Positions 5,636 to 46,271 of a stretch of DNA of 47,923 bases are shown piece after piece. The first letter of the stretch is position 1, and each line of letters starts with the position of its first letter. The translations under genes and the position numbers were made by a program. The DNA is from an uncultured Bacilli bacterium (GTDB taxonomy: Bacteria > Bacillota_I > Bacilli_A > RF39 > UBA660). The notes beneath the pieces are model-generated. The model did not search any database, was not told the origin of the DNA, and saw only the letters and a list, made by a program, of their open reading frames with translations. The DNA is taken from NCBI GenBank assembly GCA_947600335.1, contig CANQGB010000003.1, forward strand, positions 1 to 47,923, given 5' to 3'.

Positions 5636-5644
5636 TGCTATAAT
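5636..5644 (+). promoter_or_regulatory. Extended -10 promoter upstream of the 5825 gene
   Basis: TGCTATAAT matches TGnTATAAT. Confidence 0.55.
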
Positions 5645-5824
5645 ACTATTAAGAGTAAAGGAGGTATTTATTAGATTAAAAAATCTTTTAACTGCATTAA
5701 CACTCTTTATAATAAGATATTATATAAAAATGCAGTATTAAATATGTTCATCTATTTCCCAATATATTTATAATAGATGCAACAACAATAACTAATGTGA
5801 TGTACATAAGCGTAGGAGGTATTT

Positions 5825-7204: not shown

Positions 7205-7209
7205 ATATG

Positions 7210-7244
7210 ATACCCCTAATCCACAAAATTAGAGGTATTTTTTT
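7210..7244. terminator. Intrinsic terminator between convergent genes
   Basis: ATACCCCTAAT-N7-ATTAGAGGTAT followed by a T run. Confidence 0.65.
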
Positions 7245-7259
7245 GTCCAAAATTTAACT

Positions 7260-7766: not shown

Positions 7767-7842
7767 AAATTTTCTCCCTTCGAGAAAAACTATACCATTC
7801 ATAACTTACTATTTAAACATACTAATGGTTTACCCTTATTCT

Positions 7843-8343
7843 TTAATCAACTTGTTTATAGGCCATTTTTTCTATATATGTTTTTTTCCTATTATTTTCC
7901 CATATTCCATAACTAAAACCAACAATCATAAAAATATATTGTATTCCATTATCTTTTATAAAACCATAAATTATAAAGCCAACAATTATAATCATGGCCA
8001 AAGTTAATTCTAAAAAATGGTCTTTATCCCATTTATTACTAAAATATTTAATCTTTTCTTGTAAAGTAAATGAACTATTTTCTAATGCCTTAAATAAATT
8101 ATCATCAGCTTGCTCTCTAAACATTTCTTCCTTAATTTTTTCACCCGCAAAAAATTCATTTAAAGTTATTCCTAAAACATTGCATAATTTTTTATATAAA
8201 GATACATCTGGTAAACATATACCATTTTCCCACCGACTTACAGACTTATTAGTTACGCCTAACTTTTCTGCCAATTGTTCTTGCGTTAATTTTTGTTCTT
8301 TTCTTAAAATCGCGATAAAATTACCAATTTTTTCTTGGTCCAT
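7843..8343 (-). CDS. XRE-family HTH regulator with two C-terminal TM helices
   Basis: MDQEKIGNFIA...LTQEQLAEKLGVTNKSVSRWENG. RBS AGGAG. Confidence 0.85.
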   Translation of the reverse strand: MDQEKIGNFIAILRKEQKLTQEQLAEKLGVTNKSVSRWENGICLPDVSLYKKLCNVLGITLNEFFAGEKIKEEMFREQADDNLFKALENSSFTLQEKIKYFSNKWDKDHFLELTLAMIIIVGFIIYGFIKDNGIQYIFMIVGFSYGIWENNRKKTYIEKMAYKQVD

Positions 8344-25143: not shown

Positions 25144-28100
25144 TTATTTTAAGGTTGGATAACCATTACTTGAAACAGTATCTAAATTCCAGATAGTTTC
25201 ATCAAAATGTAATGTATCTTTGTAGAAATTTTTATCATGAACATTTTTTTCTGTTGCCACATCTAGTTTTCCTTTAGTAGCATCTGTTACTCGTGAAAAA
25301 CCAATAGCACCAGCATATTCATAACAATTTTCTAATGTATTCAAAATAGTACTTTCTACAGTTCCTGTAAATTTATAAGGAACAAAATCTTCATCATTTT
25401 TTGTATAGCCAGTCATTTTACCAAAAGCAATCGAATTTTTAATTCGTGGTGCATTATAAATATTTCCCACAAATCCCGCATTATATATGCTATCTGCTTT
25501 ATTTCGATTGTCACTAGTTTTTATAACATCAACCTTAGAAACAACATTTTCAACTAATCCACCTAATTGTAAGGCTCCAACAATGCCTCCATTTTCAGTA
25601 TTAAAGCATTCAATGGTTCCTTCAACATAAACATTTTTAATTGAGCCACCATATTTTCTACCAATAAATGTCGAAATATACACTCCCGTACCTTTTACTT
25701 TGGCATTTACTACACTAATATTTTCAAATGCAGAATTTTTATCATCAACAGCTACAACTGGTGCAACACGATGTTTACCTTCTAAAGTAATATTTTCAAA
25801 GCGCATATTTTTAAATGTCGCTCCGTTAGAATTATTAGCAAAAGCTGAAACATTTTCCCATTCTCCAGCATTAGGTTTTATATTCGTAAAATCTTTAATT
25901 CTCAAGTTAGATACACTACCTTCAAAATCATTAAATAATGTATATCCCTTTAAATTTTTAATTGTATAATTATTACCTTCTAATTTTCCCGTAAACGTTT
26001 CTATTATTATAGCATCTATACCAAATATATTAGTAAAAGTTCTACCCTCAAAATCTAAATCAGCAGTTAATTCATAATATTTATCGGGAGCATCACTAAT
26101 TTTTAAGAAATCATCCACAGTAGCTATTTCAATCTTATTTATAATATTAATATCTGAATTAGTATCTAATTTACTATTTAAAGATGGTAATTTACCACTT
26201 TCCACTTTACTTAAATTCCAAATATTGGCATCCCAACCTAAAGTATTTGTATAGAAATTATTAGTTAAACCATTTGTTCTAATAGAAGTTATTTTATCTT
26301 TGAAACTATCAACATCTGTTCTATTTAAAGTTGAAAGTCCAAATGGTTCTTCTAATTCGTAATTATTTTTAAAGTTATTAAACATGTCTTTACCACTACG
26401 GCCATCAAACTTATAAGCATGAGTACCATTTCCTAAAGAAATTGAGTTTTCGATCCGGCCAGTATTCAAAATTTGGCCAATGAAGCCACCACCCATGGCA
26501 CCTGTTGCCGTTACATCAACTTTACTTAAACAATTTTTAATAACTGTGCTACCTTCAGCCCAGCCGACAAAGCCTCCAACATCATTGTGACCTTTTATGG
26601 TACCTAAAGCATAACTATTAGTAGCAATCGAATTATCAAATTGACCGAAGAATCCTCCTACTGCATTACCTGTAGCATCAACATTTCCATTACTTGAACA
26701 TTCTTCCACTATCATTTGGGTTCCATAACCAGTTAAACCACCAGTTCTATCAGTACCACTTACATTGACAGTGTTAATATGAACATTTTTCATATAGCTT
26801 CTTGAAGCACTACCAATTAAGCCACCAGCTTGTTTCGCACTCGTTGTAATATTAATATTATTAGCTGCGACATTGGTAATTTGAGAATTACTTATAACTT
26901 TAGCTAAAGCCCCACAATCTATCTCAGCAGTTATTATACTTGCATTCTCGATATTTAAATTTGTTACACTAGCATAAGTCAATTTCGCAAACAATGGTAA
27001 TTTAATTCCAGTTATTATATGATTATTACCATCAAGTGAACCATAGAAGGCTTCTCTAATAATAGCATTTCCTTCAGTAATACTAGAAACATCAATATCA
27101 TTATCTAAAATAAATTCTCCATGTAAATTACTTTCAATTAAATTTCTAAAATCTTCAGCATTCTTAATGTGAATTTTATCGACATTAGTATTAAAAATAT
27201 CTGATTCAAAATCATTCGTAATTCTCTTAATATGACCATAAATCATTTGTCTAAATATTGCCATACTACTTGTCTTACTATTTTGAACATTATTTGCAAT
27301 ATCATTTTTAACTTTAGTTTCAATTTCTTTCATTAAAGTATCTTTATTCAAATAAGTACTATTATTTAATTTTTCTTCAATTTTCTTATATCTATCTAAT
27401 TGATATTCTTTCCAATTCTTATAGTTACTTACAGCTTTTAAAGCTTCTAAATCAGTTTTATAACCCCATCCTGCATAAGCAGAATATCCGTCATAACCAA
27501 AGTCAGCTAACATTTGATAAGCAATTAAAGTCCAATTGCCTTTTTCGACTAGTCCATTATCATTATGAACTACATACCAATTAGCACTACCTAATAAACT
27601 AGTTCCCTCTCGTGGAATAACAATCTTATTATCCCATAAGTCACTAATATTTTTTAATTTCATCTTTTTAAAGTCTTCAGCCGTTTTGGTAACCAGTTTC
27701 GTACTAATATTAGTAATTGTTTCTTTATCATTTAATTTAACATCCGTACTTGTTTCTTCAACAACTCTTGCTATTTTACTTTGTTCTTCCGGAGTTAATT
27801 TTAAGAATACTTGCGCTTCTAAATAATCTAAAGCTGCATATACATCAAACATCTTTTTATAGAAATCTTCAATTTCTTCTCTTGTATTAATTCGCTCAAA
27901 ATTAAAGTTTGTGGCAATATTAGTATCAAAATTATAATCATATGTATAATTTGGAACTATGCCATATTCGCCAGCACCTTGAGTTAAGAATCCATCTGTA
28001 AAGTATTCAGCATTAGCTCCCGCTCTTCTTCCTGTTCCATCTAGGAAAGTATTTCCATCTTGATTGTGAATAGCTTCATGCGTAAATATTGAATAGAATG

Positions 28101-31100
28101 TTAAAGCCGAATAAATCCAATAAATATCGGTACCATTAGCATAAGCCGAAGCAGCACTATGAACTGTATACTTATTTAAAACCTCAAAGAAAGCTTTATA
28201 TACTGGTTTAACATTTTCTTCATTAGACCAATTCTTATTTGAAGTTTTATCGTAGTTAATCATTGTTCGGCTAACCATATTGCCATAACCTTTTTCACTA
28301 GTTACACCAGCAATTGAATCATAAAATTTAGTTGCTTTATCAGCAAATTGTGTTAATAAAGTCATTCTTTCAGCTTTCGTAGTTTCTGCAAAAGTAGCTT
28401 TACCTAAAGCATTTAAATATTCATGTTCATCCAAGTTTCCAACCATTATACAAGTTGGAATACCTAAGATATATAAATCTTCACCATGATAAGATAAAAT
28501 TGGTAAAATCAACAAATCTCTAGCTTTTAAGTGATCCCAAACTCGATAACGTATTTCCGGATGTCTTTCCGCTTGAGCTTCATAAACAGTACCTGAATAA
28601 TTATCAACAATCCAACTAGCTGGATCATTCTTATACTTATCAATTGTTAAATTCTTTATAAAGTACTCTATAAATGGACCAACACTAAGATCATTAGTTA
28701 AAGGTTTAATATATTTATTAAAATAACTTGGTAGCTTACTTTCCTCATTTATCATTCTTTCCTTATCGCTTGCCATATCTACCATTGTCAAACTTACAGA
28801 TAATGGATTTAATTTATCACTAAAAATATTTCCATCAAAATAAACGATATCACTAATATTAATTCCACCTATTTGAATATTATAGAACCGATCATAATAA
28901 TTATAAGCATATAATAATTTTTCTAAAGTATAATTATTTTCTAAATCTTGAATAACTTTATTTTCTAATATTTCATTTAAGACTGATATACTATACTCAT
29001 CCACATTAGCTAATAATTTTAAAGCAAAACTATCAGCATTATCTTTAACATGAGCATAATTTTCAACAAAAATTCGAGATTCAGTTTCACTAGTCAAAGA
29101 TGCTATATTATTAACATAATTTAATTTTTTTATCCTATCAACTATATAACTATAAACCTTTGATTTAGTATTAATCAAATATTTGCTATACATATAATCG
29201 ATATCTAGTTCATTAATATCATATACGGCTATTCTATCCCCACTATCTTTTAAAGATACATGATAAACAGCTGTATCATCATCTTCAAATATAACTCTAA
29301 TAGTTTTTATAGTTGATTTATTGTTTTGAGCTAAAGCTACTACTTGATTTCCATTTGCATCATAAGCATATACATCTTTAATAACTTTTGTATTTAAAAT
29401 ATGATTAACATCTAAGATATTTCCATCTTCTACATAATACTTAGCATCATAGAAAGGCATTAATTTATACATATTATGATAAGCAATATTACGAGTTGCA
29501 TCATAATTAGCTAAATTTTTAATTCGTGCTAAATCTGGAATAAATATGCCATCAACTGTATTACTTTCCATTTTAGCATTATCTGTATTTTGATATGCTT
29601 TTAATGTTGGATATTGTCCAGAACTTACTTGTGATAAATCCCAAACATCTTCACTCCAACCTAAAGTTTTAGTATAGAATTCTTTGGTTTTTAATTGTTC
29701 TGGAGTAACAACTTTTATACCTTGTATATTTTCTTGAGACACCATATTTGATGTCGATAACTCATATACCTTCGTAGACTTATCACTTATTTTAGAATTT
29801 TGATAAGAACCATAAACTTTTAACCCATAACCATCAAGCTTAGCTTGAGATAAACTAATACAATTTGTTAAGGTAAGGCCTTTTGGATGTCCAACAAAGC
29901 CTCCTCGTGAACCACCTTTACCATTATAATTAGTCATAACATTGGTATAGAAATTTTCAATGATACTATTATCATAAGCTTCACCTACAACTCCACCAAC
30001 TGCATCATTATTCGCATTAAGAGTTCCAGATATAAAACCATTTTTGATCGTAGTTGTATACATCATACCAACTATGCCACCTAATCTTTTAGCGCTTCCT
30101 ACATTAACATTAGTTGCTGAGATATTCTCTAATTGGCTATTTTTTATAATTCCACCAAATAATCCTGAACCAGCATCATTTATAGTACTAAGTTGAACAT
30201 TCTTCATGTGAACATTTTTAATCGTGGCATTTGTTATATTATTAGCAAGTAAACCATTTGCATTAGCCCGAGAATCTATAATTACTAAATTCTCAATCGT
30301 AGCATCTTTTAAACTATCAAATAATGGAATAGACATATTTTTAATAGTATGACCTTGGAAATCGATTGTTCCTGTAAATTCTTGTGGAATTATCGCCTTT
30401 CCTGAAGTTATATTTTTAGCATCAAAATCCGCATTAACTTTATAAGAACCATCTGGATCTTGTTTAATAAGTTCTATTAAAGTATCAACATCTATATTAC
30501 TTGCTATATCACCATTAATACTACCAAAAGTAATTTCTAATTGATTAATTCGACTATTTCCGTTATATTGAACAACATTATCATAATCTAAAATGAATTT
30601 TAACAAACCATCTTCTATTTTATAATCTTTAATTGTTGTATAGAAATCTCTATCATCTTTTAAGTTAACTTGAACAATATACTTACTTAAATCTTGTAAA
30701 TCAGCAATATTAACATTCGAAATCTTTTCAACTTTATTACCTTTTTGCGTAAATAATGTCATACCTAAAACGTTTTTCATTTCTAAGAAACGTTCACCAA
30801 TATTCATTTCTTCACTTAAGATTAATTCATTTGTAATTTCATTTTTACCATTTTCTAAAGTATTCGTATCTAAATCATAATCAACAAATACTTTAAAAAT
30901 ATAGTATTCACTAGTTGTTTTCTTAAATGTTAAAGTATTTTCTCCAACTATAACATCATCATTAGCTACAACAACTCCTTGTTCATTTAAAACATCAATT
31001 TTACCTTTAGTAAATGAATTATCTGTATTTTCTAAATTAAACTTAGCTGTAATAGTCGAATCTTCATTTTCTGTATAACCAAAATTAGTAGCTTTTGGTT

Positions 31101-34100
31101 TATCCTTTAATACCTCGATTTGAACTTGATTATTTTCTTTAATTTCTAAATGTTTATAATTTTCTAAAACAATAGATTCAATTTTAATATCTTTTACTCC
31201 AGCTTCTTTATAACCATCAATTATAACTTTATAACGGTTATTTTCAGATTCTAAAGTATATAATTTACCATTAATTATAGCTTCAATTGGCTTAAACATA
31301 CTAATATTAGTACTAGCAAAAGATAATTCAATTTTCTCATCTTTAGCCAAATATTTTTTCGTTGTAATATCAAAAACTTTTAATTGATAATCAGATATTA
31401 ACTCGACAATTTCACTTGCTAAAACCTCACGATATTGATTTTCCTTATCCTCTTTATTGGTATCTCTATCATATTCAATTTCCATCTTTAAACTATATGG
31501 TTCAGCATTATCAACCGCGAAAGTTACACTATGAGAACCAGGTTCAATAGCTTGAGTCTTAACTGACTTATCACTATTTTTCGTAAGAATAGCTTCTCCA
31601 CTTACAAAACTATCATCATTATCAGTTAATGTATAATAAATCGTTACCGTACTATCATCTGTATTATCTTCTTGATCATCAATAGTTATAGTTGGTTTAT
31701 CTTTTAATACTTCGATTTGAACATTATTTTGGCTAGTTATTTCAACACCATCACTATAAATAAATTTTTTCGCTTTTAATTCTTTAACTCCAGCTGTTCT
31801 AGTAGCCTCTTCTAAAATTACTTGATATAAATTATCGCTTAATTTTATAGCAATACATTCTTCATTATTTACTAAGATTCTAGCAATATCTTCTGATTTA
31901 TTAGTATTTACTCTATAAGTAAGAGCTACTTTTTCACCTTTATTAAAATATACTTTTTCCGTTTTAACCTCTTCAATATCTAAACGTGTTTGTGCAGTAA
32001 CCTCTTTAGTAACAACTAATTCTTCACCACCAACTGCATCCTCAAGACAACTGTAAGAAGCAATTACTTTAACATAATATTTCTCAGTAACTTCTGTTGG
32101 TAAATCCCTATTAAATTGTTTATTTTCAATCTCTTCTTCAGTAAATACGTATCTCGTAATTTCCTCATTATTAGCATTAAATAAAATTACATTAACCCCT
32201 AAAATAGTTTTATCATAGTCGGTTATATCAAATTGAACATTCAATAAATTATTAACAATATCCTCATTTGTTTTAATTTCTGAAATAATTGGTGCTCTTT
32301 TGATTATTGTTAATTTAAGAACATTATCATTATCTATTTTAAAACTTTTACCATTGTCTAATATAATTTCTTCTAATTTAAATTCATTTTCGCCTAAATT
32401 TTCAATTCCTTCTTTTACAGTAATTTCATAATGATCTTGAACCTTTTGAATATCATCATATCTATGACCATTTATTATTACAGCACTTGGTTCATGACTT
32501 GTACTATTAGAACTTACAAAGCCAAGTTGGAAAGCAGCATTTTTTTCAATTGCCATTAATTCTTTACCATTTTGATATGCTTTAAAGCTTCCTACTTTAA
32601 ATTGATAATCAATATTAAATTGTAAATCTTTTGTAACTGTTAAAGCCCCCGTATATTTATCTTTATCAGAAAAATCAGCATTTGTTAAATCGTATTCAAC
32701 CACAATATTTGCTTCATACTTTTCACCATCTACCGCTGGAACAGTTACTTTATTTTGACCATTAGTAATATTTTGAACAACTATTTCTTTATCATTTGAA
32801 TCAGTAATTACAATCCTAGCTTTCGTAATACTAGCATCCTTATCATTTAAATCAAAAGTAATATCTAATTCTTCATTTAAGAAATTTTCTCCTACTGACC
32901 AATTCTTAATTTCTGGAATTTCTTTTAATACATCGATATTAACATCTTTAGCTGTTTTAATTACTTTTTCATTATTTAAAATAACTTTTTCAATATTAAT
33001 ATTTTGAATGCCAGCTCTATCACTTGCTTTTAAAACTACTTGATATGTCCCATCGCTTAAAGTCTCAACTTTATAAGTAGTTCCATTAATAACAACATTT
33101 TCTATTGTAGCCCCATAACTAACATCAGCTGCAAATTTCAAAATAACTTCCGCATTTTTTTCATAAGAATAATTATCTAAACTAACATTAGTAAATGTTA
33201 TTTCATAGTCTAAAGTTTTTTCTAATTTTTGCACTAATAAAGTTAAATCGGTAATGGTTATTTTATTATCACCATTCATATCAGCATTTTCTATGTAAGC
33301 TTTATCAATATTTTCAGAATTAATTAAATAAAGTTCTAAAAGCTCAGCATCAGCATAGTTTACCTCATAATCACCATTTAACTCACCAAGTAATGAATAA
33401 TTGACTGCTAAAGCAACCACCGTTCCAACAAATTGTAGAGAAACTAAGCCAATAGTTGTAAAGAATAAGAAACTATGAAGATTAGTCTTATTATTTTTAT
33501 TTTTATTTTTCTTTTTTATAAACCAATAAGCTAAAACTCCTATTTCAAGGGCAATAACACTTATCACTATTACATAACGTATTTCATTCTTTTTACTTAC
33601 TGCTTTTATATCTTCTATTTCAGTTTTTTCATTTTTATTTGTATTTCTATCATTAGTTGTTGAACTATCCCCACTATTAACATTATTTTCAGTTTTGTTA
33701 TCTTTGTTATCAGTATTATTAGTATTATCATCTGTTCCAATTGTTGGAATAGTTTCTTGAACCTTTATGGCTGAGATAACGGCCTTTTCATTAAAAACAT
33801 TTAAATCTGCTTTACCTTCTGATACCGCTACATCGGCAAAAGTTACTTCCGTATCTTGGGGTAAAATATTATCCCTAACTTTTAAACGAATTTGAACAAT
33901 TTCACTTGGATCTTTAACTCCAACCCGATTAATAGCCACTAATTCTTGGGTATTCGGATTATATTTTAAAGATTCCCACCCATTTAAAGAAATAAAATCA
34001 CTTTGATATACTTTTTCAAAAATGTTTTCATCATAGACCAAAGTAGCTTTATATGCATTAATACCCTTTTCAACATCATTAAAAGTATGCATTTTAAAGG

Positions 34101-34239
34101 TAATTAAAATTTCTTCACCACTTTTAACTTCATAAGAGTTACTAACTGCACTTGCCTTTATTTCAGTTTTGGCCTCGGCTTGTATAAAAGGAACCAAAAC
34201 CCCTAATATTATAAATAGTTTAATTATTGACTTCTTCAT
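25144..34239 (-). CDS. Giant surface zinc metallopeptidase of the M26 (ZmpA/B/C, IgA1 protease) family with N-terminal cohesin-like and dockerin domains
   Basis: Signal peptide; cohesin-like domain; two TM segments; duplicated dockerin Ca loops (ELNGDYEVNYAD, DMNGDNKITITD); AYHNMYKLMPFY; FTHEAIHNQD HEXXH at 28066-28080 with downstream AEYF; GLUG-like beta-helix modules. Confidence 0.85.
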   Translation of the reverse strand: MKKSIIKLFIILGVLVPFIQAEAKTEIKASAVSNSYEVKSGEEILITFKMHTFNDVEKGINAYKATLVYDENIFEKVYQSDFISLNGWESLKYNPNTQELVAINRVGVKDPSEIVQIRLKVRDNILPQDTEVTFADVAVSEGKADLNVFNEKAVISAIKVQETIPTIGTDDNTNNTDNKDNKTENNVNSGDSSTTNDRNTNKNEKTEIEDIKAVSKKNEIRYVIVISVIALEIGVLAYWFIKKKNKNKNNKTNLHSFLFFTTIGLVSLQFVGTVVALAVNYSLLGELNGDYEVNYADAELLELYLINSENIDKAYIENADMNGDNKITITDLTLLVQKLEKTLDYEITFTNVSLDNYSYEKNAEVILKFAADVSYGATIENVVINGTTYKVETLSDGTYQVVLKASDRAGIQNINIEKVILNNEKVIKTAKDVNIDVLKEIPEIKNWSVGENFLNEELDITFDLNDKDASITKARIVITDSNDKEIVVQNITNGQNKVTVPAVDGEKYEANIVVEYDLTNADFSDKDKYTGALTVTKDLQFNIDYQFKVGSFKAYQNGKELMAIEKNAAFQLGFVSSNSTSHEPSAVIINGHRYDDIQKVQDHYEITVKEGIENLGENEFKLEEIILDNGKSFKIDNDNVLKLTIIKRAPIISEIKTNEDIVNNLLNVQFDITDYDKTILGVNVILFNANNEEITRYVFTEEEIENKQFNRDLPTEVTEKYYVKVIASYSCLEDAVGGEELVVTKEVTAQTRLDIEEVKTEKVYFNKGEKVALTYRVNTNKSEDIARILVNNEECIAIKLSDNLYQVILEEATRTAGVKELKAKKFIYSDGVEITSQNNVQIEVLKDKPTITIDDQEDNTDDSTVTIYYTLTDNDDSFVSGEAILTKNSDKSVKTQAIEPGSHSVTFAVDNAEPYSLKMEIEYDRDTNKEDKENQYREVLASEIVELISDYQLKVFDITTKKYLAKDEKIELSFASTNISMFKPIEAIINGKLYTLESENNRYKVIIDGYKEAGVKDIKIESIVLENYKHLEIKENNQVQIEVLKDKPKATNFGYTENEDSTITAKFNLENTDNSFTKGKIDVLNEQGVVVANDDVIVGENTLTFKKTTSEYYIFKVFVDYDLDTNTLENGKNEITNELILSEEMNIGERFLEMKNVLGMTLFTQKGNKVEKISNVNIADLQDLSKYIVQVNLKDDRDFYTTIKDYKIEDGLLKFILDYDNVVQYNGNSRINQLEITFGSINGDIASNIDVDTLIELIKQDPDGSYKVNADFDAKNITSGKAIIPQEFTGTIDFQGHTIKNMSIPLFDSLKDATIENLVIIDSRANANGLLANNITNATIKNVHMKNVQLSTINDAGSGLFGGIIKNSQLENISATNVNVGSAKRLGGIVGMMYTTTIKNGFISGTLNANNDAVGGVVGEAYDNSIIENFYTNVMTNYNGKGGSRGGFVGHPKGLTLTNCISLSQAKLDGYGLKVYGSYQNSKISDKSTKVYELSTSNMVSQENIQGIKVVTPEQLKTKEFYTKTLGWSEDVWDLSQVSSGQYPTLKAYQNTDNAKMESNTVDGIFIPDLARIKNLANYDATRNIAYHNMYKLMPFYDAKYYVEDGNILDVNHILNTKVIKDVYAYDANGNQVVALAQNNKSTIKTIRVIFEDDDTAVYHVSLKDSGDRIAVYDINELDIDYMYSKYLINTKSKVYSYIVDRIKKLNYVNNIASLTSETESRIFVENYAHVKDNADSFALKLLANVDEYSISVLNEILENKVIQDLENNYTLEKLLYAYNYYDRFYNIQIGGINISDIVYFDGNIFSDKLNPLSVSLTMVDMASDKERMINEESKLPSYFNKYIKPLTNDLSVGPFIEYFIKNLTIDKYKNDPASWIVDNYSGTVYEAQAERHPEIRYRVWDHLKARDLLILPILSYHGEDLYILGIPTCIMVGNLDEHEYLNALGKATFAETTKAERMTLLTQFADKATKFYDSIAGVTSEKGYGNMVSRTMINYDKTSNKNWSNEENVKPVYKAFFEVLNKYTVHSAASAYANGTDIYWIYSALTFYSIFTHEAIHNQDGNTFLDGTGRRAGANAEYFTDGFLTQGAGEYGIVPNYTYDYNFDTNIATNFNFERINTREEIEDFYKKMFDVYAALDYLEAQVFLKLTPEEQSKIARVVEETSTDVKLNDKETITNISTKLVTKTAEDFKKMKLKNISDLWDNKIVIPREGTSLLGSANWYVVHNDNGLVEKGNWTLIAYQMLADFGYDGYSAYAGWGYKTDLEALKAVSNYKNWKEYQLDRYKKIEEKLNNSTYLNKDTLMKEIETKVKNDIANNVQNSKTSSMAIFRQMIYGHIKRITNDFESDIFNTNVDKIHIKNAEDFRNLIESNLHGEFILDNDIDVSSITEGNAIIREAFYGSLDGNNHIITGIKLPLFAKLTYASVTNLNIENASIITAEIDCGALAKVISNSQITNVAANNINITTSAKQAGGLIGSASRSYMKNVHINTVNVSGTDRTGGLTGYGTQMIVEECSSNGNVDATGNAVGGFFGQFDNSIATNSYALGTIKGHNDVGGFVGWAEGSTVIKNCLSKVDVTATGAMGGGFIGQILNTGRIENSISLGNGTHAYKFDGRSGKDMFNNFKNNYELEEPFGLSTLNRTDVDSFKDKITSIRTNGLTNNFYTNTLGWDANIWNLSKVESGKLPSLNSKLDTNSDINIINKIEIATVDDFLKISDAPDKYYELTADLDFEGRTFTNIFGIDAIIIETFTGKLEGNNYTIKNLKGYTLFNDFEGSVSNLRIKDFTNIKPNAGEWENVSAFANNSNGATFKNMRFENITLEGKHRVAPVVAVDDKNSAFENISVVNAKVKGTGVYISTFIGRKYGGSIKNVYVEGTIECFNTENGGIVGALQLGGLVENVVSKVDVIKTSDNRNKADSIYNAGFVGNIYNAPRIKNSIAFGKMTGYTKNDEDFVPYKFTGTVESTILNTLENCYEYAGAIGFSRVTDATKGKLDVATEKNVHDKNFYKDTLHFDETIWNLDTVSSNGYPTLK

Positions 34240-38202: not shown

Positions 38203-39009
38203 ATGACCAAACATTACAATTATAAATCTATCATCTTTTTAGCTATTGCCATTGTATTTTTAGGTTTCTCCCTCATTAACTTATATGAATGGTTTACTGA
38301 TAACCAAAAAACTAAAATAATAGAAACTCATATAAATATCACTCCCAAAGAAGAACATCCAAATAATGACAACTTAATCTTAATCAATCCTCCAGAAAAT
38401 CTAAGTGACCCTTACTGGCTTTATCAAGATACGCCTTTTTTAAATATCGATTTTACGCCTTTAATTGCGGAAAATAGAAACACCCAGGCTTGGATTCAAG
38501 TAAATGGTACTAAAATAGACTACCCTGTCGTTCAAACAACCGATAATGAATATTACTTAACCCATTCTTTTGATAATACTTTTAATAAAGCGGGTTGGAT
38601 TTTTGCTGATTTTCGCAACAACTTTATAAACTTAAACAACAATACAATTATATATGGTCATCGTCGCTTAAATGATTCCATGTTTGGTAGTTTAAAATAT
38701 GTCCTAACCGATGAATGGTTTAACAATCAAAATAATCATTTAGTTAAAATATCGACACCTACTAATAATACCATTTGGCAAATCTTTAGTGTCTATGCCA
38801 TACCCGCCGAAAGTTACTATCTCACAGCCTTTTTTCCTAACAATTTAGAATATCAAAACTTTTTACAAGCCATCACCAAGCACAGTAAATACGACTTTGG
38901 TACTACCATTAACTATCAAGATAAAATTCTTACTCTTTCTTCTTGCCAAGATGATTTAGGCAACCGCATCGTAGTTCATGCTAAATTAATCAAAAAAGAA
39001 ACTCGGTAA
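38203..39009 (+). CDS. srtB: Class B sortase
   Basis: N-terminal TM, IDYPVVQ..DNEYYL.H, IIYGH, MFGSL, ILTLSSC, RIVVHAK. Confidence 0.9.
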   Translation: MTKHYNYKSIIFLAIAIVFLGFSLINLYEWFTDNQKTKIIETHINITPKEEHPNNDNLILINPPENLSDPYWLYQDTPFLNIDFTPLIAENRNTQAWIQVNGTKIDYPVVQTTDNEYYLTHSFDNTFNKAGWIFADFRNNFINLNNNTIIYGHRRLNDSMFGSLKYVLTDEWFNNQNNHLVKISTPTNNTIWQIFSVYAIPAESYYLTAFFPNNLEYQNFLQAITKHSKYDFGTTINYQDKILTLSSCQDDLGNRIVVHAKLIKKETR

Positions 39010-39030
39010 TCAATCATACCGAGATTCTTT
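38995..39030. terminator. Bidirectional terminator between srtB and its convergent neighbour
   Basis: AAGAAACTCGGTA-N8-TACCGAGATTCTT. Confidence 0.7.
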
Positions 39031-39766
39031 AAATATACAATTTTTTTAAATTATAGAAAACTGTTCCTAATCCCATCGTACCAATTAAAAGACTTAATCC
39101 GATATAGTCAGCAGTTTGTGGATTAGTTGGAGTTTCAAACATATTTAATACTTCTTGTAAAACTAATTCATCACCTGAATTAATTGTTCTAATCATTCCA
39201 TTCATTTCTATAATAGCATCCTTAGAATCATCAGGAACCCATAAAGTTGGAGCATTTTCTTTTTCTGTTGTATTTACAATCTTAGTATCATTATCCATTT
39301 TTAAATGCGATACTTCTGTAACTCCTTTACCTTGAGATAATTCTATTCCTCCAAAACCATTACCAGATACATCAATAGTTCCTTCTAATTTAATAGTACC
39401 TCCATTTACTAATAAAGCTGCATTACCTCCTGTTAACTTAATATTCCGGAAAGTAGCTTGCGTTTTATAAACTTGGAAAATATAAATTCCACTCCAAATT
39501 TTATTATCGCTAGAACCATTATCACCAAAAGTACCAACATACTTAACTGTATGACCTTTACCATCAATAACTACTGGTCTTAAAATATTAATTTTTTCCG
39601 TTGTATTAATATCTTCGCCAAGAATTATTTCGGTTACTTCATTATTACTTAAAGCTGACTTTAAATCTGCTTGATTATGAACAGTCACACTACTAGCTGC
39701 CTTAACTTTCAAAAATGGAACGACTAATAACATTATAAATATACTTAAAAAAATTGACTTTTTCAT
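39029..39766 (-). CDS. Secreted beta-helix (pectin-lyase-like) surface protein with NPQTA sorting signal
   Basis: Signal peptide ending VKA, DLKSAL...IILGEDI beta-helix start, C-terminal NPQTAD plus TM plus KK. Confidence 0.75.
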   Translation of the reverse strand: MKKSIFLSIFIMLLVVPFLKVKAASSVTVHNQADLKSALSNNEVTEIILGEDINTTEKINILRPVVIDGKGHTVKYVGTFGDNGSSDNKIWSGIYIFQVYKTQATFRNIKLTGGNAALLVNGGTIKLEGTIDVSGNGFGGIELSQGKGVTEVSHLKMDNDTKIVNTTEKENAPTLWVPDDSKDAIIEMNGMIRTINSGDELVLQEVLNMFETPTNPQTADYIGLSLLIGTMGLGTVFYNLKKLYI

Positions 39767-39835: not shown

Positions 39836-41137
39836 CTACTTATAACCTTTAAAATCTATTTGACTATAACGAATCATTTCGTATTTATCTTTTAACAAAT
39901 CATAAAGTTCCATCTCAGTTTTATTTAAATTCTCATACCAAAAATAATACTTAATATCTCGCCACTTATTCACCTTTAATAATCTCTCAATATCTAAAAT
40001 CGAAAAAAAATTCACTTGCGATTTTAAAAGTTCATAACCATTATTATTCAGTAAACGATTTAAATTTTTAATATTATTACAATTATTAATTCGACCAATA
40101 ATACAACCATTTTTCTTTAATAGTTTCTTAATTTTTTCTAAAAACTTCTCCGGATTTTTTACCTGTTCTAAACAATTACCTATTAAAATACAATCATATT
40201 TTTTCTTAACTTTGCTTAAATTTTGATAAACATGAGCAAAATGTGAGGCAATATTTCTTTTAGCTTGATTAATTTCAACACCTTCGATAGAAATATTCTT
40301 ATATTGATACTTTAAAGCCAAAATAGTTGAACCAATACCACAATTAAGTTCCAATACCTCTTGATATTCTTCCATTAAACTAAATGATTTCAAATCATCA
40401 AAACAAAAAGTATTAAAATGCCATTTATTTATAAAATATTCTCGATTTTTATTTAAAATAGGATAAAACTTAGTTAAATCCTTCCGAAAAGCTGTTCCTA
40501 AATAATGAAAAATAAACGCATCATGACATAACATCAATTTATAACCCAAATTAATAATTCTCAAACTTAAGTCATTATCTTCAATATAACCTGGACTATA
40601 ATTTTCATCTAAGCCCTTTAATTTCGTAATAACCTCTCTTTTAATTAATAAACAAAAGCCAATTAAAAAATTTTTTTCTTCCCACTTATCTTTATTAGAA
40701 ACATTGTTTAACTTAGCTAGTTGTTGCATTTCTTCCATATCTTTAAAATTAAAATTTACCCCTTGCCTATTTTCCTGATTATTACAAACTGCCCCGACTG
40801 CTCCAATCAAGGAATCACTTTCTAAGCAAATTTTTAAATTTTTAAGCCAATTTTCTGTAACAATCGTATCATTATTTAAAAGCAAAATATCATTTTCCGA
40901 CGCACACTGAATACCTTGATTACAACCTTTAGGAAAACCTTCGTTTTTATCATTTAATATAATTTTCCATTTATCTTGCTTCTTAAGCCACTCGTGTGTT
41001 CCATCTGTAGAATTATTATCAACTATTACTAATTCGTAAGTATCTAAATCTGTATACTTTAAAATACTTTCGATACAGGCTTTTGTATAATCTAAATTAT
41101 TATACGTTAAAATAATAATAGAAGTTTTTCGCATCAT
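39836..41137 (-). CDS. GT2 glycosyltransferase fused to a degenerate class I methyltransferase-like domain
   Basis: SIIILTYN, IVDNNSTDG, LLNND, EDNDL. C-terminal VLELNCGIG...YDCIL..LEQV.NP. Confidence 0.85.
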   Translation of the reverse strand: MMRKTSIIILTYNNLDYTKACIESILKYTDLDTYELVIVDNNSTDGTHEWLKKQDKWKIILNDKNEGFPKGCNQGIQCASENDILLLNNDTIVTENWLKNLKICLESDSLIGAVGAVCNNQENRQGVNFNFKDMEEMQQLAKLNNVSNKDKWEEKNFLIGFCLLIKREVITKLKGLDENYSPGYIEDNDLSLRIINLGYKLMLCHDAFIFHYLGTAFRKDLTKFYPILNKNREYFINKWHFNTFCFDDLKSFSLMEEYQEVLELNCGIGSTILALKYQYKNISIEGVEINQAKRNIASHFAHVYQNLSKVKKKYDCILIGNCLEQVKNPEKFLEKIKKLLKKNGCIIGRINNCNNIKNLNRLLNNNGYELLKSQVNFFSILDIERLLKVNKWRDIKYYFWYENLNKTEMELYDLLKDKYEMIRYSQIDFKGYK

Positions 41138-41992: not shown

Positions 41993-42670
41993 ATGGAAAT
42001 AATAATGCGTTCAATTACTATGTTTATAATTCTTTTCTTGATTGTAAAAATTATGGGCAAAAAGCAAATTAAAAATTTAACTTTATATGATTATGTTTTA
42101 AGTATTACGATTGGCTCTATCGCTGCTGATAGTATAATTAGCTTAGACACGCCTTTACAAGATGGTATTCTTGCTTTAATTATCTTCAGTATTATTGGTT
42201 ATCTATCATCGCTTCTATCTTATCATAATCACACGGTTGAAGAAATAATTGATGGTGAACCTCTAGTTTTATTTGAAAATAATAATTTTAATTATGACAA
42301 CTTAAAAACCGCGAAATTAAGTGTAGCCAAAGTTTTAGAAAATTGTCGACTTAAAGGCTGCTTTGATATTAATGAACTAGAATGTGCGATTTTAGAACCA
42401 TCTGGGGACATATCTATTCTTTTAAAAGACAAATCTCAACCAATCACAAGTAATGACTTAAAAAGCAATATTCAAAAAAATAGTAAAAAACAATCTTTAA
42501 ATTATTTAATAATTGTCGATGGTATTATCAATGAAAATGAATTAAAAAAAGCAAAGAAAAACAAATCTTGGCTCAATAAATATTTAAAAGAACACAAAAA
42601 AAAGATAGAAAATATTTCTCTATTATCTATCGATAAAAATGATAAAGTAACTTTATTTAACCGTAACTAA
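41993..42670 (+). CDS. DUF421 (YetF-like) membrane protein
   Basis: MGKKQI..LT..D...ITIGSIAA, GEPLVL, AILEPSGDISI, IVDG.I. Confidence 0.88.
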   Translation: MEIIMRSITMFIILFLIVKIMGKKQIKNLTLYDYVLSITIGSIAADSIISLDTPLQDGILALIIFSIIGYLSSLLSYHNHTVEEIIDGEPLVLFENNNFNYDNLKTAKLSVAKVLENCRLKGCFDINELECAILEPSGDISILLKDKSQPITSNDLKSNIQKNSKKQSLNYLIIVDGIINENELKKAKKNKSWLNKYLKEHKKKIENISLLSIDKNDKVTLFNRN

Positions 42671-42802
42671 TAAAAGTTGCTTTTTTATTTTTAATAATCT
42701 TCTTGCAACCGCTTTTGAATGATTAAACTTTTTATTAAAATCATTATTTACTAATACTAAAAACTAAAAAGTATATTTAAACAATTTAGCAACATTTTTA
42801 TT

Positions 42803-43450
42803 TTATTCATCAATAAAATCTTTTAATTTCTTGGTATTTCTAGGATGTCTCATTTTAATTAATGCTTTTTGTTCCTGCTTAACAATTGTATTTTTAGAGC
42901 ATCCAAATATTTCGGCTACCTCTTCTAGTGTTTTTTTATGGGCATCATCAAGACCATATCGTAATAAAATAATTTGTTGTTCTCTAGAAGTCAAACATTT
43001 CAAAGCTTCACGAACAATATCTATTTTCATTTCCGATATTACATCCTCTATCAGTTGTTCAGCATCTGTTCCAATTATATCTTCAATCTTCATATCATCG
43101 CCGTCTTTATCTTTACCAATTGGCTGCTCAAAACTTAATACATGACTATGTTTATTATATTTAATTAAGTCTCGCCTTATTTGATTTTCAATTGCAACAG
43201 CAATGTATGAACTAAAGCCCTCTATTGCTCTTTCATTATAATCAAATTTATTAATAGCATTTAAGAGACCTTCCGTACCAGCTGACATTAGTTCTTCAAA
43301 TGTTAAACCTTTTCCTAGATACTTTTTAGCAAAAAATCTAACCAATCCGCTATTACATACTGTTAAAACTTCTAAGGCTTCTTTATCCTCAAGTTCTCGC
43401 CACGCTTTCAAACAATTTTTAGTTTCATCCAATGTTAATCTTCTAGCCAT
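42803..43450 (-). CDS. Sigma-70-family alternative sigma factor (regions 2 and 4)
   Basis: GLVRFFAKKY, GLLNAINKFD, FSSY...IENQI, LTSREQQIILLRYGL...TLEEVA. ATG at 43450 overlaps the upstream stop. Confidence 0.9.
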   Translation of the reverse strand: MARRLTLDETKNCLKAWRELEDKEALEVLTVCNSGLVRFFAKKYLGKGLTFEELMSAGTEGLLNAINKFDYNERAIEGFSSYIAVAIENQIRRDLIKYNKHSHVLSFEQPIGKDKDGDDMKIEDIIGTDAEQLIEDVISEMKIDIVREALKCLTSREQQIILLRYGLDDAHKKTLEEVAEIFGCSKNTIVKQEQKALIKMRHPRNTKKLKDFIDE

Positions 43451-44510
43451 TATTTCCACCACTATTTTTTAAAGATTTTGTCAATTTCTTTTGATAGCCT
43501 AATTCCTCCGCTTTAAAACTAACTGCCCCTGTTGTTCTTCCCAGTACCTCAGCTATTTCTGAATAAGTCATCGTTTTATAATTTTCTCTTAAATACTTTA
43601 ATTCTTTACCTTTCCAATATTGAGGAAGCATATAACTATAACCCATATTTCTCAGTAAATTAGCAATTGCTGATTCACTTCTATTTATAATTTTAGCAAT
43701 TTCTAAATAATTCTTACCCGATTTAAATAAAGATACGGCTTGCTTGATTTCTTCTTCTGTCCATTTACGATACCAAAGTGGATTTTCTTTAATATCTCTC
43801 ACTCTTTTTTCTTTTAACCATTCAGGTTCAATACCAAGCATATTCTTTTCAACACATCTTGAATCCCATTCATTTTGATTATTTTCTAAAAAAAGCATTA
43901 AATCATTCCATGTAATAACATAATATGACATATTATTAGTTAATTTTTTCTTTTTTAAATTCAAACCTAAATCAACCCAAGTAGTAGTAATTCTATCACG
44001 ACTTACATTAAGCAAATCACACATATCAGAAACTGTAATAAAGTCATAATTATTTTTAATCATAGGTCCTAATCCCATTCTTACTGCTTTTACTTTTAAT
44101 GAAAAAACCGTTCTTTTTAATGTTTGGGCAATTTTTTCAATAGGCTTAGTTCCCCATAAATCTGATAATAATACTTCTTCCTCTTTTGTCCATTTTCTTC
44201 TGTCTTGAATTAAAGTTATTCCCAATTTTCGAGCCTTTATATAAATTGCATTTTCTGTTTTATTCATAATTTTAGCTATTTCCGAATAATGAAATTTATC
44301 AGACAATAATTTTAATGTTTCGATTTCTTCATTTGTCCACTTATTAGAGGTAGGTATATCTAATCCATTTTGTTCAGCCACTCTACAAACTGCATACCAT
44401 GAACAATTAAACTTTTTCTTCATACTATAAGGAGACTCTTTTCCCCAATTACTAATTATATATTGTATTTCTTCATCAGTAAATTCTCGCTTTTGACCAT
44501 TCATAGACAT
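43443..44510 (-). CDS. Protein of tandem Myb/SANT-like HTH repeats
   Basis: Five (W/F)TxEE-type repeats, most with IA..L.R(T/S)..A(I/V), around a central HTH-like segment. Confidence 0.7.
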   Translation of the reverse strand: MSMNGQKREFTDEEIQYIISNWGKESPYSMKKKFNCSWYAVCRVAEQNGLDIPTSNKWTNEEIETLKLLSDKFHYSEIAKIMNKTENAIYIKARKLGITLIQDRRKWTKEEEVLLSDLWGTKPIEKIAQTLKRTVFSLKVKAVRMGLGPMIKNNYDFITVSDMCDLLNVSRDRITTTWVDLGLNLKKKKLTNNMSYYVITWNDLMLFLENNQNEWDSRCVEKNMLGIEPEWLKEKRVRDIKENPLWYRKWTEEEIKQAVSLFKSGKNYLEIAKIINRSESAIANLLRNMGYSYMLPQYWKGKELKYLRENYKTMTYSEIAEVLGRTTGAVSFKAEELGYQKKLTKSLKNSGGNNG

Positions 44511-44689
44511 CGCCTTTTTATTATTTTTTTAAATCTTTCATTTATGTAACTTAACCTAATCATTATATAATTTTTTATTCATAATTTAAGTGTTATTATA
44601 TATCAAAGTCCAAAAATTTTAAATAAATTTTTCCTAATGATATTAATAAATTAAAATAAAATTCGAATAGCTTGACTAATAAATATTTA

Positions 44690-45529
44690 CTATTTTATTA
44701 ATGATTTAAACAAATCTTCATAAATTTTATTAGCATCTAATTGTTTTATAAATGTTATTTTATGCCTATCATGAGTAAAAGTAAAAGTATTATCTTTATT
44801 AATAATCGGGCAACTTATTTCCATAGTTTGAAACCATTTATTATTTATCATATAAGCAATAGCCCCAATATCCCAAATAGGATATCTTTTATGTGGACCC
44901 CAAAATCGATTATAAAACTTATCACATAAATAATCACACAACTCATTTTTACCGCCAATTTCTGCATAAAGTTCATAAATTGATGTCATTAAATTTGATG
45001 TTATCGGAGAACATGGAACAACTGTTAATTTTACTTTGGAATAAAAAACTGTTTTTACTGCTTCAACATCTTGTCTGAAATTAAAATCTTTATTATCCCC
45101 AAACAAAAAATTTGTTCCATTCCAAATTATTTCAATTTTATTAATAATTTTTGGCTCTTTTGTTATAGCCAGTGCAATATTTGTTAAACAACCTATCGCA
45201 ATTATATATACTTTATCATTTTCCATTGCGAGTTCAATTATTTTATCTACTGCATCACTAGTATCTAAATAACCATTCGTTAAATAGCCTCTACTGCCTT
45301 TATAAATTAAGCTTTTATCAGATATACCAAGATAATTAAATATTTTACATGTTTCATCATAACTATCATCTATTGAATCAAATACACTTTTTTTATAGCC
45401 ACTATGTTTAAATGGAGCTATCGTGATTGCTTTAATATCAAACATATCTTTATTTTTTAATAGATATGATATTGCAAATAAGTCATCTGCTTCATTAAAT
45501 GTATCTGTATCCAAAATTATTTTTTTCAT
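44690..45529 (-). CDS. Nucleoside hydrolase (IUNH family)
   Basis: IILDTDTFNEADD, IGCLTNIA, DFNFRQD..A, IWD. Confidence 0.88.
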   Translation of the reverse strand: MKKIILDTDTFNEADDLFAISYLLKNKDMFDIKAITIAPFKHSGYKKSVFDSIDDSYDETCKIFNYLGISDKSLIYKGSRGYLTNGYLDTSDAVDKIIELAMENDKVYIIAIGCLTNIALAITKEPKIINKIEIIWNGTNFLFGDNKDFNFRQDVEAVKTVFYSKVKLTVVPCSPITSNLMTSIYELYAEIGGKNELCDYLCDKFYNRFWGPHKRYPIWDIGAIAYMINNKWFQTMEISCPIINKDNTFTFTHDRHKITFIKQLDANKIYEDLFKSLIK

Positions 45530-45574
45530 AAAAATACTCCATCCTATTATGTAGATTACTAGTACAAAAATATG

Positions 45575-45679
45575 TTTTTTAATTTGACAAATAAATCAAT
45601 TTCAGTCTATAAAAATTATAGCATAAACTTTATAAGTTTAAAACTCGAGTTATCATAGTTAAAATTTGATATCACCATG
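45575..45679 (-). repeat. Copy 1 of a ~100-bp intergenic module (decayed hairpin, extended -10 promoter)
   Basis: About 75 of 100 positions identical to 47426..47529 by hand alignment, one gap. Confidence 0.75.
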
Positions 45680-45702
45680 ATTAAACTAACTCATTTAAAA
45701 AC

Positions 45703-45728
45703 AAACTATTATGTTTTAGTAATAGTTT
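45703..45728 (-). terminator. Hairpin after the toxin gene
   Basis: AAACTATTA-N8-TAATAGTTT. Confidence 0.5.
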
Positions 45729-45745
45729 CTTTATGTCATAAACTA

Positions 45746-46020
45746 CTAAACTTTATCATAATGAGTCCACATTCTAATAATATGAATTTCTTTTCTTTCT
45801 TCATCTACTTCATAAACAATTCGATGCTGTCTATTAATTCTTCTAGAATATAATCCTGATAATTCACCAGTTAATTTTTCATATGATGGTGGATAACAAA
45901 AAAATTTTCCATCATTAGATTTAATATATTTTTACAATTCTTATCAAGATTAGCATTTTTTAGTTTTAATTTATCTTTTTCTGCTTGTTTAGAAAATTTA
46001 ATTGTATATAAACTTACCAT
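45746..46020 (-). pseudogene. yoeB: Txe/YoeB-family toxin with a 1-nt frameshift
   Basis: MVSLYTIKFSKQAEKD...MMENF, then in the -1 frame CYPPSYEKLTGELSGLYSRRINRQHRIVYEV...IRMWTHYDKV. Span is 275 nt; the shift is at the A7 run 45898-45904. Confidence 0.88.
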
Positions 46021-46271
46021 TCTTCATCCTTTTCATATTTTTTAGCAGACTCCCAATTTTCATTTTTTCTTATGTTATTAATATCATCTACATACCCTGG
46101 AATACTTGATAAAAATAATGTCTCTTCAATATTTTTCCATTCATCTTCAGATATTAATACAGCATTTTTTCCTTTATTATTTATAATAGTAATAGGATTA
46201 AAACCAACATTAACATCTGATATCAATTTGTATAGGTTTTCCATAGCATTAGTTATATTTATTGTACTCAT
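46014..46271 (-). CDS. yefM: Phd/YefM-family antitoxin
   Basis: NLYKLISDV...PITI...NAVLISEDEW..IEETLFL.SIPG. Overlaps the toxin start. Confidence 0.9.
   Translation of the reverse strand: MSTINITNAMENLYKLISDVNVGFNPITIINNKGKNAVLISEDEWKNIEETLFLSSIPGYVDDINNIRKNENWESAKKYEKDEEW

Follow-up and report, generated by a model that had tools for sequence, protein, structure and literature searches.

The alternative sigma factor with a dedicated partner is a theme central to bacterial regulation; the partners known so far are anti-sigma factors, proteases and small cofactors. In Firmicutes, spoIIAB-sigF and rsbW-sigB follow one arrangement, with the regulator gene upstream, the sigma gene downstream and translation of the two coupled. 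Sigma genes of the SigE/K/F/G type are also reported on mobile genomes in Firmicutes (10.1101/2021.11.12.468384), and a GcrA-type helix-turn-helix (HTH) protein is reported to act as a sigma cofactor, on RNA polymerase carrying sigma-70 (PMC4647560, PMC5887438). By analogy, GcrA is the closest functional precedent for the locus described here, two adjacent minus-strand genes (42803..44510) in a 47,923-nucleotide stretch from an uncultured Bacilli bacterium (assembly GCA_947600335.1, contig CANQGB010000003.1, positions 1 to 47,923; hereafter the window), in which a protein of tandem HTH repeats (the poly-HTH protein) is encoded directly upstream of a sigma-70 family factor. The window is a 26% G+C stretch of a 1.23 Mb genome that is 91% complete.

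The poly-HTH gene (43443..44510, minus) encodes 355 residues; its homologues begin at residue three (MNGQK/MKGKK), so that the true start may be the ATG at 44504, giving 353 residues. For the sigma factor the longest open reading frame (ORF) spans 42803..43462 (minus) with a GTG start and 219 residues, and since homologues start at an internal ATG (MARRL...) at 43450, we take the gene to be 42803..43450 (minus, 215 residues). At the junction (43443..43462, minus; AATAATGGCTAG) the sigma ATG opens an 8-nt overlap with the upstream ORF, whose TAG stop is at 43445-43443, and a GGTGG Shine–Dalgarno-like run near the end of the HTH coding sequence stands just before the ATG. An initial reading of this DNA from its letters and open reading frames (the first-pass annotation) had described an 8-nt overlap of the HTH stop with the sigma start, and the junction sequence bears this out.

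Comparison across genomes gives good support to the pair as a conserved, translationally coupled unit. Starting from the poly-HTH protein, with one genome per species, we collected 23 loci, and 19 of these have the sigma gene directly downstream at 64–85% identity, the others being L052, L056, L058 and L061. A search that started from the sigma factor in 250 same-family genomes found an orthologue in seven non-self genomes, and five of the seven (at least 69% identity) have an HTH-repeat ORF directly upstream; this ORF is interrupted by stops in genome G303 and is a 700-residue open frame of a longer type (described below) in G123. The two most divergent sigmas of that sample (53% and 48%) are preceded by unrelated genes or by no HTH-repeat gene. 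Finally, a sigma-first metagenome scan, which was seeded on the KMRHPRNT pattern so that copies lacking the motif lie outside its reach, returned 13 orthologous loci: all seven full-length copies with at least 1 kb of upstream sequence carry a gene of about 350 residues directly upstream, four are cut by contig ends and two are sigma fragments without an HTH gene. The metagenome contigs L107:3501-3872 and L108:749-1042 hold only the C-terminal 98–124 sigma residues, at 83–85% identity, with no HTH gene upstream, and look like decayed cassettes.

The spacing of the two genes is similarly tight across loci. The gap is −8 nt in nine loci (window included), −1 to +3 nt in eight and +19 or +24 nt in two, so that 17/19 scored junctions fall between −8 and +3 nt, although the start-codon heuristic mis-scored L048 at an upstream GTG, the L047 gap is probably shorter and the upstream gene of L063 is frameshifted. 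GGTGGTG or a close variant (GGTGG, GGAGG, GGAAGG) is kept in the 3′ end of the HTH gene. By contrast, no other protein cluster is common to more than 3 of 24 loci, and the flanks hold assorted housekeeping genes (EF-Tu, PheT, ClpB-type ATPases, Mur ligases, Ddl, ParAB, RecD2); linkage conserved amid unrelated flanks therefore indicates that it is selected for its own sake. The first-pass annotation had proposed a dedicated two-gene transcription unit, to be abandoned if the homologues were unlinked elsewhere and no interaction was found, and had not recognized the pairing as a described system. Homologues prove to be linked in all three samples (19/23, 5/7 and 7/7 loci), and linkage, tight coupling and unrelated flanks together support such a unit well, while neither literature searches nor family libraries (Pfam, NCBIfam, PHROGs, PADLOC) yielded a description of a poly-HTH/sigma pairing.

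The upstream protein is built only of DNA-binding modules. The motifs picked out at first reading (FTDEE, WTNEE, WTKEE, WTEEE, WKGKE and ITVSDMCDLLNVSRDRI) are all present in the translation, and the five Myb/SANT-like repeats to which they were ascribed are supported both by Pfam scores above curated cut-offs and by five three-helix units in an AlphaFold2 (AF2) model. The Pfam matches (bits/cut-off) are HTH_23 35.6/24.6, Sigma70_r4_2 34.4/25.7, Myb_DNA-binding (PF00249) 31.3/24.4, GcrA (PF07750) 29.8/26.9, Sigma70_r4 26.0/24.1 and Myb_DNA-bind_6 (PF13921) 25.1/22.9. The AF2 model was built from 38 homologues (predicted local distance difference test, pLDDT, 80.9; predicted template modelling score, pTM, 0.45) and places three-helix units at residues 12–47, 60–96, 109–144, 252–288 and 301–336, with a helix-helix-hairpin-helix unit at residues 160–210 lying between them. 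Repeat 1 (residues 8–50, FTDEE; 44361..44489, minus) has model helices at 12–20, 27–33 and 38–47. Repeat 2 (residues 56–103, WTNEE; 44202..44345, minus), one of the model's units, resembles the GcrA DNA-binding domain by the GcrA profile and by PDB entry 5yiu (E 0.06), and repeat 3 (residues 105–150, WTKEE; 44061..44198, minus), also seen in the model, is the best conserved in the alignment, with S137–G148 nearly invariant. After the central domain come repeat 4 (residues 247–293, WTEEE; 43632..43772, minus; Myb_DNA-binding at 249–288, HTH_23 at 252–288, and the model) and repeat 5 (residues 297–343, WKGKE; 43482..43622, minus), a sigma-70 region-4-like HTH (Sigma70_r4 at 307–331, Sigma70_r4_2 at 313–330, and the model).

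Pfam, PHROG and fold matches (the last to c-Myb R2R3, SNAPc subunit 4, Reb1 and an archaeal CRISPR-repeat-binding two-HTH protein) are the grounds for calling this partner a DNA-binding protein. Against PHROGs it matches phrog_323 ("transcriptional regulator, D5-like") at E 1.5e-46 and 160 bits in two stretches, a score inflated by the repeats, and 12/12 sampled relatives carrying the central domain also match phrog_323 through their repeats. Family profile scans found no enzymatic, sensor or anti-sigma domain in the poly-HTH protein or its long paralogues. Among 17 Pfam hits at E 0.1 or better there is no anti-sigma, kinase or zinc-binding anti-sigma domain; all belong to HTH or other DNA-binding families except IF2_N (13 bits, far under its cut-off). 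All 286 homologues are unnamed or hypothetical except one (P0091), which carries the source label "DNA-binding CsgD family transcriptional regulator". Foldseek with the whole model found nothing at E 0.001 or better, because the placement of its domains is loose (pTM 0.45). The top hits of a PDB profile search were designed helical repeat proteins, which we regard as artefacts of composition and repeats.

Between repeats 3 and 4 lies a central signature domain (residues 156–246; 43773..44045, minus), a putative MerR/excisionase-type winged HTH followed by a conserved two-helix extension (NQNEWDS...EPEWLKEKR). The excisionase-like HTH claimed in the first-pass annotation is weak by sequence: scores fall under the cut-offs (HTH_17, PF12728, 14.0–14.1 bits vs. 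27; TIGR01764 17.7 vs. 28.8), and at the fold level there is a modest match. Modelled alone, the 97 central residues reach pLDDT 83.5, and VIA-align pairs them with MerR N-domains, BldC, Xis, RacA and small-terminase DNA-binding domains at Z 5.0–6.4 (root-mean-square deviation 2.1–3.3 over 52–59 residues), where Z below 8 may reflect a common arrangement. The match spans the first ~60 residues of the model (model residues 7–64); the two-helix extension has no fold match, yet it is the most conserved part of the family. A PDB profile search with the domain gave nothing below E 0.06, and the domain alone had no PHROG match at 1e-5. A search of 1.84 billion proteins with its profile found 683 clusters (50% identity), 198 with E-values of 1e-10 or lower, in carriers of 74–879 residues, with the domain placed after roughly one to thirteen repeat-lengths of sequence.

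The downstream protein passes the sigma-70 family tests (bits/cut-off: Sigma70_r2 31.6/24, Sigma70_r4 45.1/24.1, TIGR02937 superfamily 91.9/42.9), with region 2 at residues 37–99 (43154..43342, minus; PF04542) and region 4 at residues 153–206 (42833..42994, minus; PF04545). Its best NCBIfam matches are SigK and SigE (E 1e-35 to 1e-36 over residues 3–210), and both family tests fail at about one-third to one-half of the cut-offs: PRK05803 126.2 bits vs. 252 and TIGR02846 118.3 vs. 298.65 for SigK, PRK08301 122.5 vs. 339 and TIGR02835 116.5 vs. 348.6 for SigE. These sub-threshold scores agree with the earlier description of the sigma factor as atypical. Read directly from the sequence, region 2.4 is of the CIENEIL type, not RpoD's WW type, and the N-terminus (MARRLTLDET...) begins ~20 residues before region 2.1 with no pro-sequence, whereas the genome's own SigE and pro-SigK have hydrophobic N-terminal extensions. 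The tail is RpoD-like (KMRHPRNTKKLKDFI vs. KLRHPSRAKKLKDFL in the genome's RpoD), and the last 20 residues (KMRHPRNTKKLKDFIDE) resemble the RpoD end of the same genome. Identity is 36% to its own SigE, 32% to its own pro-SigK and 30% to its own RpoD, and the best match outside the family, at 41%, is a sigma on a fecal "Bacteriophage sp." contig. Mean column identity is 82% for the sigma factor and 72% for the poly-HTH protein, roughly that of RpoD between the same genomes, and judged from these alignments both cassette proteins are under strong constraint.

The genome encodes eight sigma-like proteins: RpoD, SigE, SigG, pro-SigK, a SigF-like, a SigH-like, an orphan SigE/K-like factor on contig C8 and the window sigma, names that apart from the NCBIfam ones for the window sigma were assigned by sequence reading. 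From its gene content, this very small genome seems to hold a full sporulation sigma set. Sigma genes lie at G000 C54:4488-6006, C31:4969-5673, C64:2597-3250, C20:8156-8779 and C8:1407-2075; those for SigE and SigG are adjacent, and the orphan on C8 has no poly-HTH neighbour.

We found one hint that the sigma factor depends, physically or functionally, on its partner, and it lies in the C-terminal motif MRHPRNT (residues 200–206; 42833..42853, minus). This motif is invariant in 19/19 paired sigmas and altered in all three copies that lack an upstream HTH-repeat gene (G009, G119, G074). Across the 57 columns that are invariant in the 19 paired sigmas we scored seven further copies. The four with an HTH-repeat gene upstream changed at none (G303, 78% overall identity; G123, 76%) or two columns (G020, 74%; G010, 65%), and the three without it changed at seven (G009, 78%), nine (G119, 53%) and 16 (G074, ~47%). 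G009 and G303 make a matched pair. In G009 (L090:1509-2640, G009:C7) the HTH gene is deleted save for its last ~30 nt, which hold the Shine–Dalgarno run, and a new TGCTATTAT box stands upstream of the sigma-only derivative; four of its seven changes fall in the MRHPRNT-K tail (H202, N205, T206 and K208), and H202 and T206 are also changed in G119 and G074. Small as the sample is, the matched pair suggests that the sigma C-terminal tail is constrained only where the poly-HTH partner is present.

Upstream of the cassette lies a sigma-A-like promoter candidate, TTTAAA-17-TATAAT (44595..44623, minus; 10/12 consensus matches), and TGnTATAAT-type extended −10 boxes stand at the cassette heads of L048, L049, L050, L053, L054, L055, L057 and L063. 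Such boxes match a consensus in DNA rich in A/T and do not by themselves show function; promoter-like sites were not enriched in our scan (11 found vs. 16.7 expected), which also found no terminator-like site. The boxes nonetheless suggest that expression of the cassette may be sigma-A-driven rather than self-driven. When 20 cassette heads were compared with 66 control upstream regions, a motif search returned only A/T-rich and TATAAT-like words, and a search for tandem DNA repeats in the window found none near the cassette. The nine sequencing runs listed as carrying the sequence are all DNA runs from gut samples, with no RNA run among them.

The two-gene form in the window is probably a reduced version of a fuller cassette. 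In 9/24 loci one or two extra genes of 583–787 residues lie directly upstream of the ~350-residue gene, with ~11–15 of the same GcrA/Myb-type HTH repeats and ending in the same central domain, and in several loci without long genes their 3′ relics remain. The long genes match only HTH and DNA-binding families in a profile scan. Loci with long genes include L048:1575-5995, L053:1563-6001, L055:1567-6004 and L086:2825-7288 (G010:C5), and one same-genus genome carries genes of 647 and 796 residues, then an internally deleted 161-residue gene, then the sigma gene (a 219-residue ORF). The longest poly-HTH protein has 796 residues at the inspected loci and 879 among library hits; proteins with so many tandem HTH units seem unusual for bacteria.

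Distribution and sequence comparison mark the cassette as accessory and horizontally scattered, a trait that the first-pass annotation had missed, as it had the fuller form and the family that the repeat protein shares with phage regulators (phrog_323). HTH-family hits occur in 5/30 same-genus genomes (all at 51% identity or less) and in 10/250 family genomes (~4%). At the syntenic site of the same-genus genome G026 the YetF gene is joined to the toxin–antitoxin locus by 33 bp (G026:C35:9296-9328), whereas the window holds 3,094 bp there (42660..45753, no strand), containing the sigma gene, the HTH gene and a nucleoside hydrolase gene. The same gap measures 532 bp in G015 (C8:19564-20095) and holds ~4 kb of other DNA in G006 (C15:11328-15334); it is a variable hotspot within the genus. 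We noticed no flanking repeats in these alignments, and no dedicated search for boundary repeats was made. Cassette identity is also out of step with RpoD: G065 has RpoD 74%, HTH 84% and sigma 82%, and G088 has RpoD 84%, HTH 70% and sigma 69%.

One reading draws these observations together, and we hold it tentatively, as the best of several: the pair may be a self-contained, mobile transcription cassette in which the poly-HTH protein is the obligate DNA-targeting partner of the sigma factor. The downstream gene would encode a complete alternative sigma, with a region 2 like SigE/SigK and a tail like RpoD, and the upstream gene five GcrA-DNA-binding-domain/Myb-type HTH repeats that would flank a MerR/Xis-type winged helix with its family-specific helical extension. 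An ordinary sigma-A-type promoter would transcribe the cassette, and translational coupling would yield both proteins together at a fixed ratio. The poly-HTH protein would recognize a DNA site that is extended or repeated and would guide, or activate, RNA polymerase bearing the window sigma, plausibly by touching the C-terminal MRHPRNT tail; the basic tail of sigma-70 region 4, the counterpart of this tail, is a contact site for activators. The targets would lie elsewhere in the genome, because no neighbouring gene is conserved. What the sequences show is the anatomy, the conserved linkage and coupling, the accessory distribution and the altered motif of unpaired sigma copies; physical contact, a positive sign of regulation and the targets are inferred, and the proposal of the first-pass annotation that the repeat protein reads DNA and recruits, or sequesters, the sigma factor likewise goes beyond these findings.

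Several observations weigh against this reading. Three sigma copies carry the argument for dependence, and two of these are also the most divergent overall; the sigma factor persists alone in all three (G009, G119 and G074). Likewise, the HTH gene occurs without a sigma orthologue in G061, G062 and G063 (best matches 33–34%), G299 and G158, all incomplete metagenome-assembled genomes; surviving without the sigma in five genomes, it is therefore not wholly sigma-dependent, and it has or can acquire a sigma-independent role. The cassette heads share no conserved upstream motif, and therefore show no sign of autoregulation and offer no candidate target site. Seeing the tail as a contact site draws on what is generally known of how activators touch region 4 of sigma-70. 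Prediction of the complex, with both alignments, scored 0.00, 0.33 and 0.14 in its runs against a mark of 0.32, without controls, and is evidence neither way.

A bolder extension, which we consider improbable, would make the cassette a portable, orthogonal transcription system: a sigma factor with weak intrinsic −35 reading would be addressed to promoters by a GcrA/Myb-type HTH array contacting its tail, and the number and order of repeats would set the DNA address. Within region 4 of the sigma factor, conservation is lowest in the recognition helix, and HTH arrays range from 3 to about 15 units across paralogues. On this view the cassette could spread among gut Bacilli with reduced genomes, rewiring a set of genes in a single step.

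An alternative that we likewise rate as unlikely is that the pair is the regulatory core of an unrecognized mobile element or a domesticated phage switch, in which the poly-HTH protein would be an early/late regulator of phage type and the sigma factor likewise of phage type, and whose targets would be genes of the element and not of the host. The phrog_323 match (E 1.5e-46) fits this, as do distant relatives in the early/replication regions of Clostridium phage phiCp-D and Bacillus prophage phBC6A51, related ESM-Atlas clusters that are 60–80% viral, and a sigma closer to that of the fecal phage contig (41%) than to the host's SigE (36%). Patchy presence (10/250 and 5/30 genomes), absence from the G026 syntenic site and the RpoD incongruence of G065 and G088 would follow equally. 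However, among 22 loci with 104 neighbouring ORFs no phage structural, replication or integration gene is consistently linked to the cassette, the exceptions with mobile genes nearby being L045 (an rve integrase and a serine recombinase) and L056 (IS200). The cassette flanks in the window are ordinary chromosomal genes. Scans of IMG/VR contigs with both profiles, resting on two peptide patterns each, returned no relative; phage-record matches to either protein reach at most 41% identity, and the HTH–sigma pairing appears in 0/4 inspected phage regions. On this evidence the pair is not a known prophage remnant, an origin that the first-pass annotation had named as fatal to its own proposal. This alternative overlaps with the DNA-targeting-partner reading, and the sole difference is whose genes are controlled.

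Less probable still, the poly-HTH protein could be a negative partner, holding the sigma factor inactive in the manner of an anti-sigma factor or repressing its promoters until a signal arrives. Gene order from regulator to sigma with coupling, as in spoIIAB-sigF and rsbW-sigB, would suit such a role, and if a sigma-A promoter that looks constitutive produces both proteins, some brake would be required. Against it, the profile scans gave, at E 0.1 or better, HTH and DNA-binding families alone apart from IF2_N, and neither an anti-sigma nor a kinase or sensor domain; a six-module DNA binder would be an odd sequestering device; and losing a brake would be expected to leave the constraint on the sigma factor in place, yet unpaired copies drift at invariant positions.

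We regard as distinctly improbable that the pair is a conflict or defence module, in which repeat-variable poly-HTH proteins bind invading DNA and the sigma factor reprogrammes transcription on infection. As an accessory unit, the cassette lies in a variable hotspot beside a toxin–antitoxin pair and varies in repeat and paralogue number, and the C-terminal third of the sigma factor matches MzaA, the sigma-like protein of the MZA system (NCBIfam 2.4e-23, PADLOC 4e-20). That match, however, covers generic RpoD-like region 4 only (71/683 profile positions in the best stretch), the other PADLOC matches (mad1, CARF3, CasR) are to bare HTHs only, orthologues are strongly conserved and not diversifying, and no effector gene is linked. 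Least credible of all is that the genes serve unrelated functions and have nothing in common but an operon: each does occur alone in some genomes, but they stay adjacent, with a conserved overlap, across loci that otherwise share nothing, and unpaired sigma copies drift at invariant positions.

A family scan of the genes neighbouring the cassette in the window found a nucleoside hydrolase, YetF/DUF421, Sir2, a GT2-methyltransferase, a Phd/YefM antitoxin and GNATs, with neither an anti-sigma nor a kinase or phage structural gene adjoining the pair, in keeping with the first-pass annotation. The Phd/YefM antitoxin gene (46014-46271) is followed downstream by a YoeB/Txe-like toxin gene (45746-46023, minus) that lies in two frames near 45900 and is probably a frameshifted toxin of the toxin–antitoxin pair. 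The GT2-methyltransferase (39836-41137, minus) is a 433-residue fusion of a family-2 glycosyltransferase and a class I methyltransferase. Elsewhere in the window a 3031-residue ORF (25144-34239, minus) with an M26 IgA1-protease N-terminal region and a dockerin type I domain is, on its predicted domains, a giant secreted or surface protein within a reduced genome. At 38203-39766 a sortase gene adjoins a gene for a 245-residue protein with a pectate-lyase-like adhesive domain, an NPQTA motif and a C-terminal hydrophobic tail, and the two look like a sortase–substrate pair. Four Xre-type HTH regulator genes cluster with a RhuM-family gene and a YjbR-domain gene at 2085-8343, and at locus L051 a RhuM gene lies three genes upstream of the cassette.

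The pair is kept across many uncultured gut Bacilli with 1–1.5 Mb genomes, moving as a unit. If both proteins do act together, they would form a compact, transferable promoter-recognition system and a natural case of modular multi-HTH DNA addressing in bacteria, and would offer a handle on regulation in a large, uncultured and apparently spore-forming gut lineage.

Set against described systems, the closest likeness is to GcrA of Caulobacter (PF07750; PDB 5yiu), a DNA-binding protein that reportedly works in conjunction with a sigma factor (PMC4647560, PMC5887438), and residues 57–103 of repeat 2 align to PF07750 positions 2–50 at 29.8 bits vs. 26.9. GcrA differs in having one HTH and a C-terminal sigma-binding domain in place of five repeats, and in serving the housekeeping sigma, beside which its gene does not lie. 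The poly-HTH protein has no match to profile positions 51–155 and scores 13.1 bits vs. 280 against sig70cofacGcrA (NF050816); membership of the GcrA family thus fails, because the sigma-binding domain is not matched. The strong profile match to phrog_323 has its counterpart in Escherichia coli N4-like phages, which carry 36–38% identical two-repeat proteins, but the phage proteins are shorter, and "D5-like", which we take to refer to the D5 DNA-binding protein of phage T5, is an annotation with no tested function behind the name.

Tandem three-helix HTH units in one chain also recall multi-HTH readers such as c-Myb R2R3 (1h8a), SNAPc subunit 4 (7xur), Reb1 (5eyb) and the archaeal CRISPR-repeat-binding protein (2lvs). 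Foldseek matched 2lvs with probability 0.99, 1h8a_C with 0.98 and 7xur_A at E 1.4e-3, and a sequence profile matched 2lvs at E 9.7e-4; the Foldseek E-values all exceed 0.001, template modelling scores are low, the modelled domains are loosely placed, and none of these four proteins is coupled to a sigma factor. The window sigma shares its best family matches and a CIENEIL-type region 2.4 with SigE/SigK (PRK08301, PRK05803), but it scores far below their cut-offs, lacks a pro-sequence and has an RpoD-like tail, and its genome already has SigE, SigF, SigG, SigK and SigH-like genes. Phage-encoded sporulation-like sigmas are reported to lie on phage genomes, whereas the window sigma is chromosomal, without phage context and with a dedicated poly-HTH partner. 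A sigma factor with a dedicated partner is a known theme, and it is the architecture of the partner, a large protein of tandem DNA-reading modules only, and the cassette-like distribution that are unusual.

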